DNA of 63,186 bases, the filler included, from Rhabdomonas costata (Eukaryota): the NCBI GenBank assembly GCA_019059605.1. It is 50 parts of 50 records of this genome, joined end to end, with 100 filler letters (N's around TTAATTAATTAA, not from the genome) between each part and the next. Parts side by side here need not be neighbours in the genome. Positions count along the whole stretch, not along the records: positions 17,724 to 18,890 come from JAHMHO010025402.1; positions 18,991 to 20,156 come from JAHMHO010025403.1; positions 20,257 to 21,422 come from JAHMHO010025404.1; 47 more parts are not named here. One strand, given 5' to 3'. Shown in pieces: positions 1 through 38,617 of the stretch. Position 1 is the first letter of the stretch. Every line of letters begins with the position of its first letter. The translations under genes were made by a program, and so were the position numbers. Under the pieces are notes generated by a model. The model was not told the origin of the DNA. It saw nothing but the letters and a program-made list of their open reading frames with translations, and ran no database searches.

Positions 1-2
1 GT

Positions 3-1046
3 GAATCAAAACATCTTTTACTTAAAAATCTTTATTATAGTCCAAGGACACAATACACATCTATAAAAAGTTTATATGACAACGTACGTAACAAGGGAAT
101 AACCTACGCTGAGGTTAAAGAATTCATCCAAAAACAGGAACCAAGCCAAATTTTAAAAAAGAAAAAGAATGTACGCCACTTTTTCCCAATTACTGCACGC
201 TTTAAGTTCGAAATTTTACAAATTGATTTAGTTGATATTTCTAATTGGGCCCAAGCAAACAAGAATTATAAATATTTAATCGTTGCCTTCGTTATACCAA
301 TCAAGGAGAAAACCGGCGAAACAGTCACGAATGCACTCGACGAAATCATCAAGGAAACATCACCGCTAGTCGTGAATACTGATCTAGGTAGTGAATTTAT
401 CAGTGCTCCATTCGTTCGACGCCTTACACAACAAGGAACCGATATAAATTACGTTAAGGTTGGAGAACATAATAAACTAGCAATCGTAGATCGTTTTGTG
501 CGAACCCTACGAATGAAAATTCAAATGTATATGATTCAGTACCACACAGCAAGTTATATAAATGTATTAAATGATCTCGTATACAATTATAATAATGGGT
601 ACCATACAGGAATAAAAGGAATCCCACAACAAGTAAAAGAAATTGACCCACACATTCAAAAATTAAATGTTGAAAAATACAACAAAGCAACACAGGAAGA
701 AAAAATATACAACATAGGCCAAAAAGTAAGATATAGTATCGTTAAAGGAAGATTTTCAAAAGGCACAAGTGCTAACTGGTCAAAAACTATTCACACAATC
801 ATTTCAAGTACACCACATAGTTATATTTTAGAAAATGGTAAAGAATGCAAATACTATGAGTTACAACCTATCGAAAAATACGAAAAAATCGAATTACCAG
901 AACAGCATCCAACAGTAGATGCTTTGGCAAGTGCAAGAACCCAACAACGGCAGTTTAAAAAGAGTGGACTGAATCGTGAGGACATACAGGAAGCGAAACG
1001 ACAACCAAAAATCAAAGAATGGGCCCGTTCTACGTTAAATAAATAA
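3..1046 (+). CDS. Polinton/Maverick-type retroviral-like (rve) integrase, 5'-truncated
   Basis: Frame open from contig start: LQIDLVD (D at 225), NTDLGSEF (D at 381), IVDRFVRTLR (D at 489), YNNGYHTGIKGIP, C-terminal YNIGQKVR..FSKG..NWS..YELQ typical of Polinton integrases; AT-rich, intronless. Confidence 0.88.
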   Translation, partial: ESKHLLLKNLYYSPRTQYTSIKSLYDNVRNKGITYAEVKEFIQKQEPSQILKKKKNVRHFFPITARFKFEILQIDLVDISNWAQANKNYKYLIVAFVIPIKEKTGETVTNALDEIIKETSPLVVNTDLGSEFISAPFVRRLTQQGTDINYVKVGEHNKLAIVDRFVRTLRMKIQMYMIQYHTASYINVLNDLVYNYNNGYHTGIKGIPQQVKEIDPHIQKLNVEKYNKATQEEKIYNIGQKVRYSIVKGRFSKGTSANWSKTIHTIISSTPHSYILENGKECKYYELQPIEKYEKIELPEQHPTVDALASARTQQRQFKKSGLNREDIQEAKRQPKIKEWARSTLNK

Positions 1047-1166
1047 GAACAAAATGTTATTATTAAAAATCTATCAGTATTTTTAATGTTTGAACCTACT
1101 ATAAACCCACCACTAAACTTACTAAACCCACCATAAAAACTACTATAAAAACTACTACAACCCACC

Positions 1167-16350: not shown

Positions 16351-18166
16351 ACACCACCNNNNNNNNNNNNNNNNNNNNNNNNNNNNNNNNNNNNNNNNNN
16401 NNTTAATTAATTAANNNNNNNNNNNNNNNNNNNNNNNNNNNNNNNNNNNNNNNNNNNNAACCAAAGCAGGAAGGATGAAAGAGCTCCACGTGAGGGCGAA
16501 AATCAACCCGAGGGCTGCAGGGGAAAACCGAAAGCAGAAGGCAGAAAGGCGAGAGCCGGGAGGGGTTGAAAGAGGCATGTGGAGAGGTGGGGTGAGGAAG
16601 GGCGCAGCTCCACGGGAAACAGTCCAACAATCCTTCAACGATCACAACTTTGGTTTTGCACACTTTTCAAGGGAATTGAATCGTTCCCGGTTGACATCAA
16701 AAAACACAATGGTGAACGACACGCTGGTGCAGATGCGCTCGTGGAGGACTGTGAATGTCACTGAAAATGCAGTTCCGACGGCGCACATGGCCTGCCAACA
16801 GCAGATCAACTTCACCTCGGCAGCAGCTAAGGGGAGGAAAGGGGTGGGCGAGGTGTGCGATTGGGAGGGTAAGGTTTGGCGCATTATTTCCGGGCGCCCC
16901 GTATATTGTGAAAACCTAGAGGGTTCAGACTATTTCCGGAAATCACGAAAAACAATTGGAGGATCAGCATCAAAAAAATGGGGGGGGGGGCAAAAACATA
17001 AAAAAACGAAAAGAAAAACCCCATTTGGTGTGCACAATTCCGCTCGACTTCGCTGCAAAGCTCGGTTCTCTGCTCAACACACACTGCAGGCAAGCGGGGG
17101 CACCGTTTGCGAAAGCAGCCCAGTCACAGAGCTAAAGACGGGACAGGATCAAGCGTAACAACGCATCGTTGCAGCGGTGAGGAATGTGGAATGTGGAATG
17201 TGACGGGCAGACAAGAGCTGCCTGTGAACACAACACAAAAAAATAGATGCACGACGGGGGAACTCCGGGGCAGCCTATACAAAGTGGACAGACTGAGAGC
17301 GTTTGCCCACCAGCACAATTCAAGAACACATGCGCATCTGAATGCTCTCAGGCAGCTCAAGCATGGATTCGGCCCATTTGCGCAATGTAAGCGTGGATGG
17401 GCCGGCGATGTCTTTGTTCGATCTTAACGACACACGATCCAGCTCCAGCTTCTGTCCCGATGTAAACAGCGGCACCGTGTCAACATAAATGAGGAGGAAG
17501 GGAATTGATAAAACTTGTACCGCATTGTGCACGCGCATGCACAACACGGGCAGAAAAAGGAGGGCTGCCTGAGGCGAGACCGAGGTTTGAAGGTAGAGGA
17601 AGAGTTACAGGAACAAACCAAAANNNNNNNNNNNNNNNNNNNNNNNNNNNNNNNNNNNNNNNNNNNNTTAATTAATTAANNNNNNNNNNNNNNNNNNNNN
17701 NNNNNNNNNNNNNNNNNNNNNNNGGTTGTGTGTGTGTGTGTGTGTGTGTGTGTTGGGCTCATTGCGCGCTGTCTGTGTGTGCGAGCGTGCGTGCGGGTAT
17801 GTGTTGGGAGCATTGCGCGCTGGCTTTTGCCTTGTTCACTGGTTAGTAGTCTAGTAAGTTGTGAGCACCGTCCCCTTTTTACTCGGCCTTCAGCCTCGTA
17901 AAAGGGGACGTTCCCCACAACTTACCAAGCAATTTAACCCGCCACGGCGCTCCGCTGGGATGGGTAATTTTAGGGTGATAATAAGAAACATAGATTAAAC
18001 GGTCTGCAACCTCGAAAAAAACGGCACGCTGAACCCGAAAATACGTCAATTTAACCCGCCACCGCGCCCCGCTGGGAGGGTATATTTTGGATACGCTGGT
18101 TGACGGTATTTTATACTACTGTAGAAAAACATATAAAGACAAAACTATTACTGTATAATATAAAAC

Positions 18167-18662
18167 ATGGATTCCAGAATCTGTTCAAGTTGCCACACCG
18201 AGAAAGGCGCAGCACGTCATATACTAAGAATTCAAGTGTCTGCAATCAGTGCAGGATGGAGTTAGCACGAGCTAAGAGAGACGGAATGGCCAATCTCACT
18301 TTTCAAACACGTTCACCTGAACTTGAAGCTCTAACAAAGAGATCTAACGAACTGTCAGCTGAGTTAAGAAGACAAGTTGCATTAAAACTTGATGCAAGCA
18401 AAGAACTAGAAGAGTACAAAGAAGCAGAACGCCAAAGATATCGTCAGTACTACAAATAGAACAGGAAAAGTGAAATTAAACGAGTAGCTGAATATCATAA
18501 ATATAAAAGAAGGGGTTAACCAAGCCTGTTGAAATGATTGATTGCACGTGTCACCAAACTTTCCCTATGATTTCGCTTGATTCACATTTACATAGCAAAT
18601 CGCACAGCACGCGTGATCAATCTAATTTATCTATTGAAGACATTTACATAATGTTAAAGTAA
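18167..18662 (+). pseudogene. Virus-type zinc-ribbon/coiled-coil protein, frameshifted
   Basis: MDSRICSSCHTEK /fs/ SYTKNSSVCNQCR...coiled coil...YYK* NRKSEIKR... /fs/ EMIDCTCHQTFPMISLDSHLHSKSH: a CxxC pair plus CxC..H..S..H motif of the kind common in NCLDV/PLV genes; stops and frameshifts. Confidence 0.6.
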
Positions 18663-18664
18663 TC

Positions 18665-18692
18665 TTAAATTGGAGAAATTTCCCCAATTTAA
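18665..18692 (+). terminator. AT-rich hairpin immediately 3' of the stop codon
   Basis: ttaaattgg-agaaatttcc-ccaatttaa. Confidence 0.45.
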
Positions 18693-18699
18693 ACACAGT

Positions 18700-18880
18700 A
18701 TTTTTCATAAAAATTTTCATAAAAATTTTCCATAAAAAATTTCATCCAAAAAATTTCATTCAAAAAATTTTTCATAAAAAATTTTGAAAATATTTGATTC
18801 AAAAAATTTCAATCAAAAAATTTTATACAAAAAATTCACAAAAAATGTTTTTATAAAAAAAATTTTGAAACAAAATTTCA
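18700..18880 (+). repeat. Degenerate A/T-tract tandem repeat (~12-14 nt, AAAAATTTTCAT-like)
   Basis: More than 10 imperfect copies visible. Confidence 0.85.
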
Positions 18881-18991
18881 CAACACAACCNNNNNNNNNN
18901 NNNNNNNNNNNNNNNNNNNNNNNNNNNNNNNNNNTTAATTAATTAANNNNNNNNNNNNNNNNNNNNNNNNNNNNNNNNNNNNNNNNNNNNA

Positions 18992-19867
18992 CATCTTTAT
19001 AGAACATGTCGAGATCCGATTACAAGTTTTGGTATTATTGCTGTTAAATTTGCATGTGATTGCTTATATCAAAACTTAATAAATAACAGTAAAGAGAATA
19101 CAAATTTTTTATTTACAAAAATAGAATGTAAAACGGATTTAGATTTTCAAAAATTCTCATTGTACAAAGATTGTATTAGATTTTTAATGATACAACGTAA
19201 ATTTTCATTAGGGTTTGTTGAATTTATTCGTGGAAAATACAAAATTGAAAATTACAACGGGATTACATTTTTATTTAAACAAATGTCTCCTTCAGAAATA
19301 GAATTAATTAGAGCCAAATCATTTGAAGAATTATGGTTTATGTTTTGGGGAAATAATAAAGAAGTGATTAATAATATAAATCATATAAATGAGTATAAAA
19401 TGGCACATGAAAAGTATACACAACCATTAACATATACACATAGAAATTTAGAATATTATATTGATCATATAAAGCCACAATATAAAGATATAGAATGGGG
19501 ATTTCCAAAAGGAAGAAGGAAACGATACGAAAAAAACATGACATGTGCATGTAGAGAATTTGAAGAAGAAACAGGATTAACAAAAAATGAATATAGATTA
19601 CTAGATAATATTGAACCAATTGAAGAAATATTTTATGGAACAAATGGTGTTAAATATAAACATATATATTACATAGCAGTAATAACAACGAGTCGAGATA
19701 TTAAAGAATCAGAATTTAATAGATTTCAACAAGAAGAGATCGGTAATATTGATTATATGACATATGATGAAGCAATGAGTATAATACGACCATATCATAT
19801 AGAAAGAAAACTTGTATTAACACATATTTATACAAATGTAATGAATATTCTAATATCAACAACTTAA
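18992..19867 (+). CDS. Mimiviridae-type Nudix hydrolase (putative mRNA decapping enzyme, L375-like), 5'-truncated
   Basis: Frame open from contig start: HLYRTCRDPITSFGII (end of Zn knuckle), LMIQRKFSLGFVEFIRGKY, Nudix box EWGFPKGRR..E....CACREFEEETGL, EEIFYGTNGVKYKHIYY, QQEEIG..IRPYH; very AT-rich, intronless. Confidence 0.93.
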   Translation, partial: HLYRTCRDPITSFGIIAVKFACDCLYQNLINNSKENTNFLFTKIECKTDLDFQKFSLYKDCIRFLMIQRKFSLGFVEFIRGKYKIENYNGITFLFKQMSPSEIELIRAKSFEELWFMFWGNNKEVINNINHINEYKMAHEKYTQPLTYTHRNLEYYIDHIKPQYKDIEWGFPKGRRKRYEKNMTCACREFEEETGLTKNEYRLLDNIEPIEEIFYGTNGVKYKHIYYIAVITTSRDIKESEFNRFQQEEIGNIDYMTYDEAMSIIRPYHIERKLVLTHIYTNVMNILISTT

Positions 19868-19881
19868 AATTTAAAAAATCG

Positions 19882-19914
19882 TTATTTATATTCTTTTATA
19901 AAAAATATAAATAA
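19882..19914 (+). terminator. Palindromic hairpin 14 nt after the Nudix stop (Mimivirus-type polyadenylation hairpin candidate)
   Basis: ttatttatatt(c)ttt-tata-aaaaatataaataa: 14-bp stem with one bulge. Confidence 0.6.
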
Positions 19915-20041
19915 AAAATTATTATAGTTACATAGTGACTAACATAATTAGTTACATAGTGACAACATATTCAATGACATTAAATCGCAGCATATCATGC
20001 GCACATAATGGTTTTTATTTCATTACATTTTTAATAAAAAT

Positions 20042-20153
20042 ATGTTTACATATTTTTTATGAAATCAATAAAATATTTTTGTAAAAAAAATTATTGATGT
20101 ACATGTTTACATATTTTTTTTTATAAAACAATAAAATATTTTTGTAAAAAAAA
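20042..20153 (+). repeat. ~50-bp AT-rich direct repeat x2 (plus tagttacatagtgac x2 at ~19925-19962)
   Basis: atgtttacatatttttt..aataaaatatttttgtaaaaaaaa occurs at 20042 and 20103. Confidence 0.8.
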
Positions 20154-21126
20154 ACANNNNNNNNNNNNNNNNNNNNNNNNNNNNNNNNNNNNNNNNNNNN
20201 TTAATTAATTAANNNNNNNNNNNNNNNNNNNNNNNNNNNNNNNNNNNNNNNNNNNNGGGTGGTGGGCTCAGTTGGTTCTCAGGCTTTTCAATCGGCAAGG
20301 CGGGGAAGTAAAACTCGACTCTTGATAAAGTTGTGTGTGTCTTGAAAGGAGAAGTTGCTTGGGTCTCCCTTTTGGGCCCAGAGCTTTTGTGCGTATTGCC
20401 TTGTGCACGACCTTTGTTGCAGCTTTCGCGAAGAATATACGAGAACGACGCCTTTCCCTGCAGCTGCCGTTCGCATCATATGCTTCTAACGTTTCTCGCC
20501 TCTTTTTTGCTTGAGGGGAATGGGGGGTACTCACCGTAGCGACCGCCGGTTCCCAAGAAGAAGCCTCGGCACTCCAGAAGCCGTTCCAAGGCTGTTCGGG
20601 TTGCCCTGGCCTCGCTGCCGTGCCTCCATACGGTGTACAAGAGCGACTTCATTACCCCCGAAACCAAGTATGAAACTGCACGGACTTTTTGAAGTGTTAC
20701 AGTAAATCAGTGGAACCTTTTGTCATGCTTTTGACATCCACTTTGTTGTCAACACGCGGTCGGCCATTGCACACCACGAAAGGTTGATTGATATGACGAA
20801 TGGTAAATCAGCGGTTTTCTCTTTCCTAGCGTCCCCACCGTTTGCGCGAATTGGTTCTGATCCCCCAGCATCTCCGAGCATCTCCGAGGCTGTACATATT
20901 CAGCAGATGCACCATGGCTGCACAGCGCTCGTACGTGAGATAAGATTGATTAGTGTGTATCCATTTTTTGGTGAAGTTTTTTTAATGATGCCAGAATGCT
21001 CAGCCGTGACGCTTTGCTCTCCTTCCGCGCTTTTTGGCTCTGGTCCTGGGAGCAACTCCAGCAACTCGAAGATCGTTGTCGTTGCACTATTATGGGTAAA
21101 ACCACTGAAAAATAGCAAATTTATTT

Positions 21127-36614: not shown

Positions 36615-37208
36615 NNNNNNNNNNNNNNNNNNNNNNNNNNNNNNNNNNNNNNNNNNNNTTAATTAATTAANNNNNNNNNNNNNNNNNNNNNNNNNNNNNN
36701 NNNNNNNNNNNNNNGGTTTTTGGTACCAACGTGAAGACAACGGAATGGCCAAAAATCGTTTTTCATATACCGCCTCATGACCGTATAACACCCGTTATAC
36801 CGTTTGACGCCCCCCCTCCCAATACACAGGACCGGAAGAAAACAGAAAGACTCATCCTTGACAGCTGAAAAAAAATCGAAAGTCGAGGGAAGAGGGCTGG
36901 TGGGGGCCAATATTTTTTCCCAGTGCAACCACCTAGCCTTCCAACCGTAGGTCCGAACCACTTCCATCGGATAGCCCACCCAAACCATCCTGAGGGAAGG
37001 TCAAGCCCCTCCCACCAAGCCTTCGACTACTTCGCGCAAAATAAAAACACACCCACACCCACACACAGACAAACTCACGGACATTTTCCGCTGGGCGCTG
37101 CATTCCAAACCCAGCAGTAACAATACTCTACATACCTCAATTCGCTTCGTTTCGGGAGTAAACAAGCAACACACCCACACCTAAACAACCACCAAAACAA
37201 AAGCACAC

Positions 37209-37560
37209 CAGGGGTGTAGTTGAACTCTGGATGCCCTGGTGTTCTGCTGCGGACGCTGCGGAACTGCTTGATCTGCGGCAGGTCGACGTCAAACCCACTG
37301 ATGTGCAGCCAGGCGTACAGGAACATAGACCCATGGCCCGCGCTGAGCACGAAGCGGTCACGGTTGAGCCACTTCGGGTCGGCCGGGTTGAACCGCAGGG
37401 TATCCCCGAACAGCACGGCACCGATCTCTGCGCAGCCCAGAGGCATGCCAAGGTGCCCGCTCTTGGCCTGCGCCACTGCATCCATCGCGAGCCCCCGGGC
37501 CTCGTTGGCAGCCTGGCTGAGGATATCGGCGCGGAACACCGACCCGGGGGGCTTCACCAT
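37209..37560 (-). CDS. TKT: Transketolase, N-terminal exon
   Basis: [28 protein letters not shown]...[17 protein letters not shown]...TPGHPE; donor g|gtgtgc. Confidence 0.97.
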
Positions 37561-38617
37561 CCCCGAGCCACTCGTTGGGGAGGTCTGTGGGGAAGGCAAC
37601 GCTCAGCTGTCCATGTGCGTGGGTGCAAAAAGAAACGTCATGCCCCGCGTCGTGCCACAGAAATCACACATCAGGACCAATCAGGCAACTAGTGCTGGAA
37701 AGGTTTGAATTATACACGATACGAGGAGGAAACGGCTCTGGAAATAGAGATTTGAGTATCGCTTGTTTTTATTACAACTGTGAAGTTACCCTCATATTAG
37801 AGGAGGATACTAATTGAAACTACCATATTTCAGAGTGGATGTGTCAAACAAAGCTAAGGTGGTGCGATGTCTAATTTGCTNNNNNNNNNNNNNNNNNNNN
37901 NNNNNNNNNNNNNNNNNNNNNNNNTTAATTAATTAANNNNNNNNNNNNNNNNNNNNNNNNNNNNNNNNNNNNNNNNNNNNGGGTGTTGTTGTCTGCAGAG
38001 AGAAAACCCAGGGAGCCCGGAAAGAGCACTATTTGATATGCAAAAGGCTGACGGCAGATTACGGGGTTCAGGAGACACCCACTCCTTGGCTCCTGACCCT
38101 TCCCTCCAGCTCTGTACTGCTCCGCGCCATGAATAATTCTGGTGTTCGTTCACTTTTACCAAAGTTGTAAAAGCGAATGAAAGATTACTAAAATCCGGTG
38201 GCATTGAACTGGGAGGGGGCAGGGTTCGAAAACGGATGCTTTTCCATGTCCCCATCAGAGGGTTGTTTCGTGGGTTCGAGCGGAGTATGTTAAAAAAAGG
38301 AATCCCTGAGCGGCTAACAGGGTTTTTTTATCCAACAACATATCTTGGCACCCTCGAAGCGGAAAAGAACGGGTGTCTCCTTCGGGATGGCGATGACAAT
38401 CTGGTAAGGGTTAAGGCGATGGATAGGAAAAGGTGAGCCGCCATTACACCCCCTGCCCGCTGGGATGAATGCCAAATGTCAACATTTACTGATAAACAAA
38501 TGGGTTCCAACCTCCGCAAGCGAGCAAAGGGCCACCTAGACAGTGGATGCAGAAAATACAGAACAAAAAAGTAACAGAACTTGAAAGCTGCGGGAGGTGA
38601 AAGTCGAACGTGCACAC

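Follow-up and report, generated by a model that had tools for sequence, protein, structure and literature searches.

How does a very AT-rich gene of giant-virus type, closely followed by a long palindrome, come to lie in a eukaryote genome assembly, and what does it say about the organism that was sequenced? The question is raised by one short contig (positions 18991-20156) in a stretch of 63,186 nt from the assembly of Rhabdomonas costata (GCA_019059605.1), which was analysed as a whole and is called the window hereafter. The contig carries on its plus strand the 3' part of a gene whose predicted product, P0001, groups with the Nudix mRNA-decapping enzymes exemplified by g5R of African swine fever virus (ASFV) and L375 of Mimivirus. 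The answer favored here, to which a probability of about 0.8 is given, is that the contig is a small genome fragment of an uncultured, klosneuvirus-like giant virus of the Imitervirales (Mimiviridae in the broad sense), which had been among the DNA from which the eukaryote assembly was made.

A decapping-type Nudix gene and its relatives

P0001 matches the NUDIX profile of Pfam (PF00293) with an E-value of 9.9e-9 and a score of 35.7 bits (cut-off, 21.1). In a sequence search of the PDB, ASFV g5R was its best match, with an E-value of 1.5e-21 over query residues 55-258, which cover both domains of the protein, whereas chains of the eukaryotic enzyme Dcp2 were matched at 1e-3 to 1e-2 over the 30-70 residues around the Nudix box. 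The two E-values thus differ by 18 orders of magnitude. The initial annotation, made from the sequence, had called the gene a giant-virus Nudix decapping gene, and this identification is borne out both by that contrast and by the named viral relatives, which belong to the Klosneuvirinae (Mimiviridae).

A word-indexed protein search with a limit of E≤1e-3 returned 2070 relatives, whose highest identity to P0001 was 53%. Among the 120 listed of these 2070, few bear the name of an organism: they include Indivirus ILV1, Hyperionvirus sp., two entries labeled “viral metagenome,” and one protein each from a bacterial and an archaeal metagenome-assembled genome (MAG). An exhaustive search gave 3422 representatives at E≤1e-3, 559 of them at E≤1e-30, with a top identity of 54%, which is also the highest value for P0001 among about 15 billion public proteins. 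Identity to the Indivirus and Hyperionvirus proteins is 45 and 40%, respectively, in a 30-row alignment that includes P0001 (A1), and 44 and 41% by BLASTP. Twenty-eight relatives lie on giant-virus contigs of IMG/VR, of up to 357 kb and with GC contents of 17-27%. Four such records were searched for capsid genes of nucleocytoplasmic large DNA viruses (NCLDV), and the two largest gave five and eight matches and the two small fragments none.

The fold points in the same direction as the sequence. The AlphaFold (AF2) model of P0001, built from the alignment, has a pLDDT of 89.9 and a pTM of 0.86. When this model was searched against BFVD, the NUDIX protein of Yasminevirus came first (E 4.3e-28, TMq 0.84, 34% identity), followed by proteins of Marseillevirus, Megaviridae, Pithovirus, and asfa-like g5R proteins, with an entomopoxvirus D9R-like protein far behind (8.6e-7). 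Among PDB folds, g5Rp was again the best match (E 8e-14, TMq 0.64), ahead of Ap4A hydrolases and RppH at about 1e-5, and Dcp2 was not found among the best 50. The resemblance of P0001 to g5Rp is thus above that to any cellular Nudix protein met, g5R being at the top of the PDB searches by sequence and by fold alike.

Phylogeny was examined in a quick maximum-likelihood tree whose 56 rows included no cellular Nudix or Dcp2 protein, a composition that counts against the viral placement. In this tree P0001 forms a clade with P0002 and P0017, two unnamed metagenome proteins (SH-like approximate likelihood ratio test, SH-aLRT, 97), the former being its closest relative, at 53-54% identity. The trio stands inside a group of 36 rows together with Indivirus, Hyperionvirus, and the capsid-bearing 357-kb viral contig L001. 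In BLASTP and in phylogeny, two of the checks that the initial annotation had proposed, P0001 groups with viruses. A placement among the Imitervirales, of Mimiviridae-like type, agrees with the matches to Indivirus, Hyperionvirus, and Yasminevirus, with the capsid genes on two of the four relatives' records, and with the tree, few rows of which are named. P0001 adds a rather divergent member to an established family of decapping enzymes from giant viruses and is represented here by an orphan fragment. By its sequence and that of its relatives, the gene is of the giant-virus decapping type and not cellular, and its enzymatic activity is predicted.

Two rows of the tree carry cellular labels, P0045 from a 427-kb contig assigned to a Magnetococcales bacterium and P0120 from the MAG of a Nitrososphaerota archaeon. 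Both are placed among giant-virus proteins, and their source contigs are probably giant-virus contigs that were mis-binned.

The coding sequence (18992-19867, plus strand), recognized by ORF (open reading frame) calling, Pfam, PDB and protein searches, and alignment, is truncated at its 5' end and comprises 291 codons and a TAA stop (19865-19867). The ORF had first been thought intact, but it is not: its frame (18992-19864) runs open as far as the contig's first base, and residue 1 of P0001 aligns with residues 20-36 of relatives of full length. To judge from the alignment, about 20-35 residues fall beyond the contig edge, together with the start codon. The contig holds the 3' 876 nt of the gene, in which even the first ATG in frame, at 19187, is an internal one. 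The edge also explains what had been described as a zinc-knuckle remnant. An H-x4-C motif (residues 1-6; 18992-19009, plus strand) is indeed present, but it is the second half of a C-x2-C-x4-H-x4-C zinc knuckle whose first half falls beyond that edge, not a relic of decay, and both H1 and C6 stand in invariant columns of the alignment.

Downstream on the same strand lies a mostly helical, non-Nudix domain that aligns with ASFV g5R (residues about 21-160, with approximate boundaries; 19052-19471) and contains an invariant FIRGKY at residues 78-83. It is followed by the Nudix domain defined by the Pfam profile PF00293 (residues 166-263; 19487-19780, plus strand). The Nudix box of this domain, GRRKRYEKNMTCACREFEEETGL, is complete (G-x5-E-x7-RE-F-x-EE-x-G-L; residues 174-196; 19511-19579, plus strand), with the EX2EE residues present and a REFEEETG core identical to that of ASFV g5R. 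The motifs on which the initial annotation relied are all in place, IRGKY at residue 79, GTNG at 216, and YKHIYY at 222 in addition to the Nudix box, and the frame is free of introns, as had been noted. Thirty-five columns are invariant across the 30 rows of A1. The ORF has no internal stop and no frameshift and has lost none of the invariant residues; as all 35 columns are retained, there is no sign of decay in the gene.

The relatives in A1 begin with the CCHC knuckle, and P0001 starts at its invariant histidine. Since the zf-CCHC profile of Pfam matched so few of the aligned members (3 of 30 at E≤0.01), the knuckle was counted by pattern; of 263 relatives, 235 have C-x2-C-x4-H-x4-C, which in the median begins at residue 13. 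A strict Nudix-box pattern matched 129 of the same 263, many of which have small insertions or substitutions, and that count was not used as evidence. The knuckle may be an additional RNA-binding or RNA-recognition module of these Imitervirales decapping enzymes. No mention of it was found in the searched literature joining giant viruses, Nudix, and decapping, and its prevalence in the family merits biochemical attention.

A complete enzyme of this kind would consist of three parts, an N-terminal CCHC zinc knuckle, a helical domain, and a C-terminal Nudix domain, which is the architecture of the ASFV g5R/Mimivirus L375 class. The glutamates of EX2EE would bind a divalent metal, and m7GpppN-RNA would be hydrolysed by them into m7GDP and 5'-monophosphate RNA, with RNA binding supplied by the helical domain and the knuckle. 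The 5'-monophosphate RNA might then be taken up by 5'-3' exonucleases, leading to faster host shut-off and to turnover of viral mRNA and double-stranded RNA (dsRNA). The catalytic activity of P0001 is predicted by analogy with ASFV-DP and with L375, the latter of which is described as freeing m7GDP from m7G-capped RNA, an activity abolished by an E-to-Q change in the Nudix box, and as being about 21% identical to ASFV-DP (PMC8478210). In the same source, exposure of RNA to exonucleases, host shut-off, and turnover of viral mRNA and dsRNA are described for the vaccinia enzymes (PMC8478210).

The palindrome after the stop codon

Does the DNA that follows the gene also look viral? An A/T palindrome at 19882-19914 (plus strand) is a candidate viral 3'-end signal. 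Its first arm (19882-19896) begins exactly 14 nt past the stop and is separated by a 3-nt loop from the second (19900-19914), with which it forms 14 A-T pairs and one C.A mismatch. Hairpin-forming palindromes after ORFs are described as a hallmark of the Mimiviridae (PMC4402537, PMC6163669) and are reported for the klosneuvirus isolate Bodo saltans virus (BsV) as well (PMC5871332), and in moumouvirus 78% of the genes are said to have such a hairpin no farther than 150 nt from the stop (PMC3542560). The parallel with Mimivirus-type hairpins drawn in the initial annotation thus agrees with these published descriptions. Under the “hairpin rule” of the Mimiviridae, the palindrome would act as a transcript 3'-end signal, at which the RNA would be cleaved by the viral RNase III and then extended by the viral poly(A) polymerase.

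The palindrome exceeds what base composition produces. When the 100 nt after the stop were shuffled with dinucleotide frequencies preserved, none of 1000 shuffles reached 14 pairs with at most one mismatch, and a perfect 11-bp core was reached by 14 of the 1000. In 22 overlapping 100-nt segments of the contig, coding DNA gave 5-8 pairs and the post-stop DNA 14. It is the sole palindrome of more than 12 pairs, the next best being found in the repeat-rich 3' end, with 12 pairs at 20082-20123 and 10 pairs at 20030-20064.

Relatives were also examined at the orthologous position. Of 108 loci fetched, 35 were removed as duplicates or as too short, and 73 were kept. A palindrome was called significant if it was reached by at most 5 of 100 shuffles under strict Watson-Crick pairing, and the DNA 200-300 nt upstream, within the same genes, provided a coding control. 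Significant palindromes were present after the stop in 14 of the 73 loci, vs. 3 of the 73 controls, a 4.7-fold excess (Fisher p=0.004). At least 12 pairs were formed in 12 loci and 1 control, and at least 14 pairs in 3 and 0. The signal therefore appears to exist at the level of the family, though only in a minority of relatives by the strict Watson-Crick definition, and the palindrome of the Nudix contig is among the strongest in the set. The locus of P0002, the closest relative, was not recovered in the metagenome scan, where the best identity was 43%.

Several properties of the palindrome weigh against a 3'-end signal, and hence against one part of the viral reading. All 14 pairs are A-T (A-U in RNA), which makes the hairpin marginally stable; the minimum free energy of the 81-nt stretch around it is -8.2 kcal/mol, with a z-score of only -1.54, and 15 of 200 shuffles fold equally well. 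Under the strict test, nothing significant was seen after the stop in 59 of the 73 relatives, and the 240 nt beyond the palindrome are rich in other direct and inverted repeats. All this would fit a palindrome that arose as a by-product in intergenic DNA of high A/T content and low complexity, or a site of recombination or replication that acts at the DNA level and is no mRNA 3'-end signal. Neither explanation sits easily with the shuffles of the post-stop DNA, with the excess over coding controls among the relatives, or with a location just after the stop that fits the published rule of at most 150 nt (PMC3542560). On balance, the palindrome probably has a genuine role at the 3' end, and an origin as a by-product or DNA-level site is a sizeable but lesser possibility.

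Two other kinds of repeat lie in the 289 nt after the stop. A 15-nt exact direct repeat, TAGTTACATAGTGAC, is present in two copies 24 nt apart (19925-19939 and 19949-19963; 19925-19963 overall, plus strand), either of which can fold into a mini-hairpin of 6 bp. Two tandem A/T-rich units of 63 nt, 76% alike, extend up to the 3' edge of the contig (20027-20152, plus strand); they are probably intergenic and may have caused the assembly to break at this edge. A scan of the contig against Rfam at E≤1 gave no matches.

Origin of the viral DNA

The next question is how this DNA relates to the eukaryote. The window is made up of 50 pieces of 1164-1167 bp, split at N/TTAATTAATTAA spacers; it is a length-sorted join of unrelated small contigs and does not form a contiguous locus. 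As the 50 contigs are merely concatenated, neighbors carry no linkage information on the Nudix contig, a free-standing assembly contig of 1166 bp (18991-20156) with spacers on both sides and no physical link to the adjoining pieces. The location “in a protist assembly,” given in the initial annotation, therefore does not amount to linkage. The base composition that had drawn attention is as extreme as reported: the contig has 22.5% GC, similar to the loci of the relatives (17-27%) and 25-30 points under the bulk contigs. The other 49 contigs comprise 45 that range from 45.6 to 58.6% and four below that range (33.4, 36.5, 37.8, and 41.2%).

The contig that precedes the Nudix contig in the window (17724-18890; 37.8% GC) is unrelated to it and has at its end degenerate A/T repeats with the pattern (A)nTTTTCAT(A)n, and its 134-aa ORF has a weak, sub-threshold Pfam match only. 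On another contig (36715-37880), an ORF on the minus strand (37078-37602) encodes an N-terminal portion of transketolase that is 78% identical to unnamed proteins and 63-75% identical to its named relatives, which are from Verrucomicrobiota. The match breaks off at a GT and is not resumed anywhere in the roughly 490 nt that are left, and the fragment looks like a eukaryotic exon of bacterial-like affinity followed by a long intron. With this exon/intron pattern, the bulk contigs are most simply eukaryotic.

Some results weigh against a giant-virus fragment as the source of the contig. A search for NCLDV hallmark genes, which the initial annotation had suggested as a check, was carried out here on the three longest stop-to-stop ORFs of at least 90 aa per contig, over all 50 contigs (58 kb); 135 of the 136 ORFs were scanned, the one skipped being an antisense frame inside the Nudix gene. 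Beyond the Nudix gene, no NCLDV hallmark (such as MCP, PolB, A32, or VLTF3) was found in these 135 ORFs, whose other Pfam matches were WD40, transketolase, RING, and a sub-threshold rve. The early-promoter octamer of the Mimiviridae, AAAATTGA, is absent from 19868-20156, the region upstream of the P0001 gene lying off the contig. The single copy in the contig, at 19241, is within the ORF, and the eight copies in the whole window are not above chance (shuffle mean, 4.8). Furthermore, a fragment of 1.2 kb cannot prove the presence of a whole virus. Neither does it contain a host-virus junction, although one could lie beyond its edges: it starts within the ORF and stops within the A/T tandem repeat. 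The whole contig is viral-like, and by itself it does not tell free virus, contaminant, and endogenous element apart.

Among the possible sources of an Imitervirales fragment, a slight preference is given to viral DNA that was not integrated and that virions or infected cells had brought into the sample, whether through an active or persistent infection of the sequenced organism, through a virus whose host was some other member of a non-axenic culture, or through environmental carry-over. The viral-type GC content, 25-30 points under the other contigs, and the full conservation of the coding sequence would both be expected of free virus or of a contaminant. So would the break at a tandem repeat, as seen in fragmentary low-coverage assemblies of AT-rich viral DNA, and a second, unlinked AT-rich contig with a mobile-element integrase suggests that non-host DNA is present in the assembly. 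This preference is tempered by the fact that one viral gene only is seen among the 50 contigs, and an active infection would usually be expected to produce deep coverage and long contigs. Nothing separates an infection of this host from contamination.

Integration into the nuclear genome, either recent or maintained under selection, is an unlikely though plausible source. Endogenised giant-virus DNA is well documented in the genomes of protists and algae. The assembly is eukaryote-like, its other contigs having about 50% GC and one of them an intron-interrupted transketolase exon, and the shortness of the contig weakly favors coverage at the level of the host genome rather than at that of a viral burst. 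On the other hand, an endogenous element is opposed by the lack of a host-virus junction in a contig that is viral-like throughout, by an ORF with no trace of decay, and by the absence of other viral hallmarks from the 50 contigs.

The AT-rich contig with the integrase is the first in the window (1-1166; 33% GC). Its ORF (3-1043, plus strand), open at the 5' end, encodes a protein of 347 codons, P0122, with a DDE-like integrase signature. The Pfam profile rve is matched at an E-value of 0.0039, below the cut-off, and the language-model features of the protein resemble those of rve clusters, some of them from Preplasmiviricota. Sixty-five of its 66 relatives, all on metagenome contigs of at most 14 kb, are annotated as rve, and the best are 59-64% identical. 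A search of IMG/VR gave 10 pattern matches, none of which was confirmed. No capsid or packaging ATPase of Polinton-like viruses (PLV) or virophages was seen with P0122, nor any link to the Nudix contig. By these sequence criteria, P0122 is a genuine mobile-element integrase, of a Polinton-like, virophage, or other element. The three-way system of host, giant virus, and Polinton-like element put forward in the initial annotation finds no support in the window, an unlinked rve-type integrase contig being its sole basis. It would be quite improbable for a klosneuvirus-like virus to be endogenised or persistent in this eukaryote and for the rve contig to be its virophage or Polinton-like companion, although the result would be a natural triad with an identified host.

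Finally, a cellular gene, i.e., a Dcp2-like or other Nudix gene of a eukaryote or of an AT-rich symbiont, could be invoked because Nudix domains are universal, Dcp2 is weakly matched around the Nudix box, and two relatives bear bacterial or archaeal MAG labels, but it can be dismissed with near certainty: it was set aside on account of the g5R/Dcp2 contrast in E-values and the genomic context of the relatives, some of which lie on capsid-bearing giant-virus records, while Dcp2 is missing from the best 50 PDB folds, the “bacterial” protein of the 427-kb contig sits among giant-virus rows and is most simply explained by mis-binning, and the P0001 gene lacks introns and departs by 25-30 GC points from the host contigs.

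Of the thousands of giant-virus lineages found in metagenomes, very few have a known host. A giant-virus fragment in a eukaryote assembly can lead at little cost to the discovery of a host-virus pair or of an endogenous element, provided that linkage is shown. The Nudix contig alone cannot show it, and its interest is modest until linkage is examined.

Comparison with known systems

ASFV g5R (also called D250R or ASFV-DP; PDB 7dnt, 7dnu, and 8wqq) resembles P0001 in having a helical and a Nudix domain. It belongs to a different virus order, and its identity to P0001 in structural alignment is only 22-23%. Residue 18 of g5R aligns with residue 55 of P0001, which suggests that g5R has no counterpart of the N-terminal segment of some 50 residues, knuckle plus strand. 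Eukaryotic Dcp2 has the Nudix catalytic box in common with P0001 and no match outside it, and there is no evidence in P0001 of the N-terminal regulatory domain of Dcp2.

Mimivirus L375, to which the likeness is drawn from its description in the literature only, would be of the same functional class (PMC8478210). It is not named among the listed protein matches or the BFVD matches, and the nearest named relatives, at 41-45% identity, belong to the Klosneuvirinae and not to the genus Mimivirus.

The post-stop palindrome shares with the hairpin-rule signals of the Mimiviridae, as these are described, its position behind an AT-rich viral gene, at most 150 nt past the stop, and its nature as a palindrome that can form a hairpin and is not conserved in sequence (PMC4402537, PMC3542560, PMC5871332). 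It differs from them in being a candidate signal, purely A-U and marginally stable.

The closest of the named systems are the NUDIX proteins of the Klosneuvirinae (Indivirus ILV1, Hyperionvirus, and Yasminevirus). They are collinear with P0001 over their full length, including FIRG+Y, the Nudix box, and GTNG..YKHIYY, and relatives of this type carry the N-terminal CCHC knuckle of which P0001 retains the second half. P0001 differs from them by an identity of 34-45% and by its position in a small clade of its own with P0002 and P0017.

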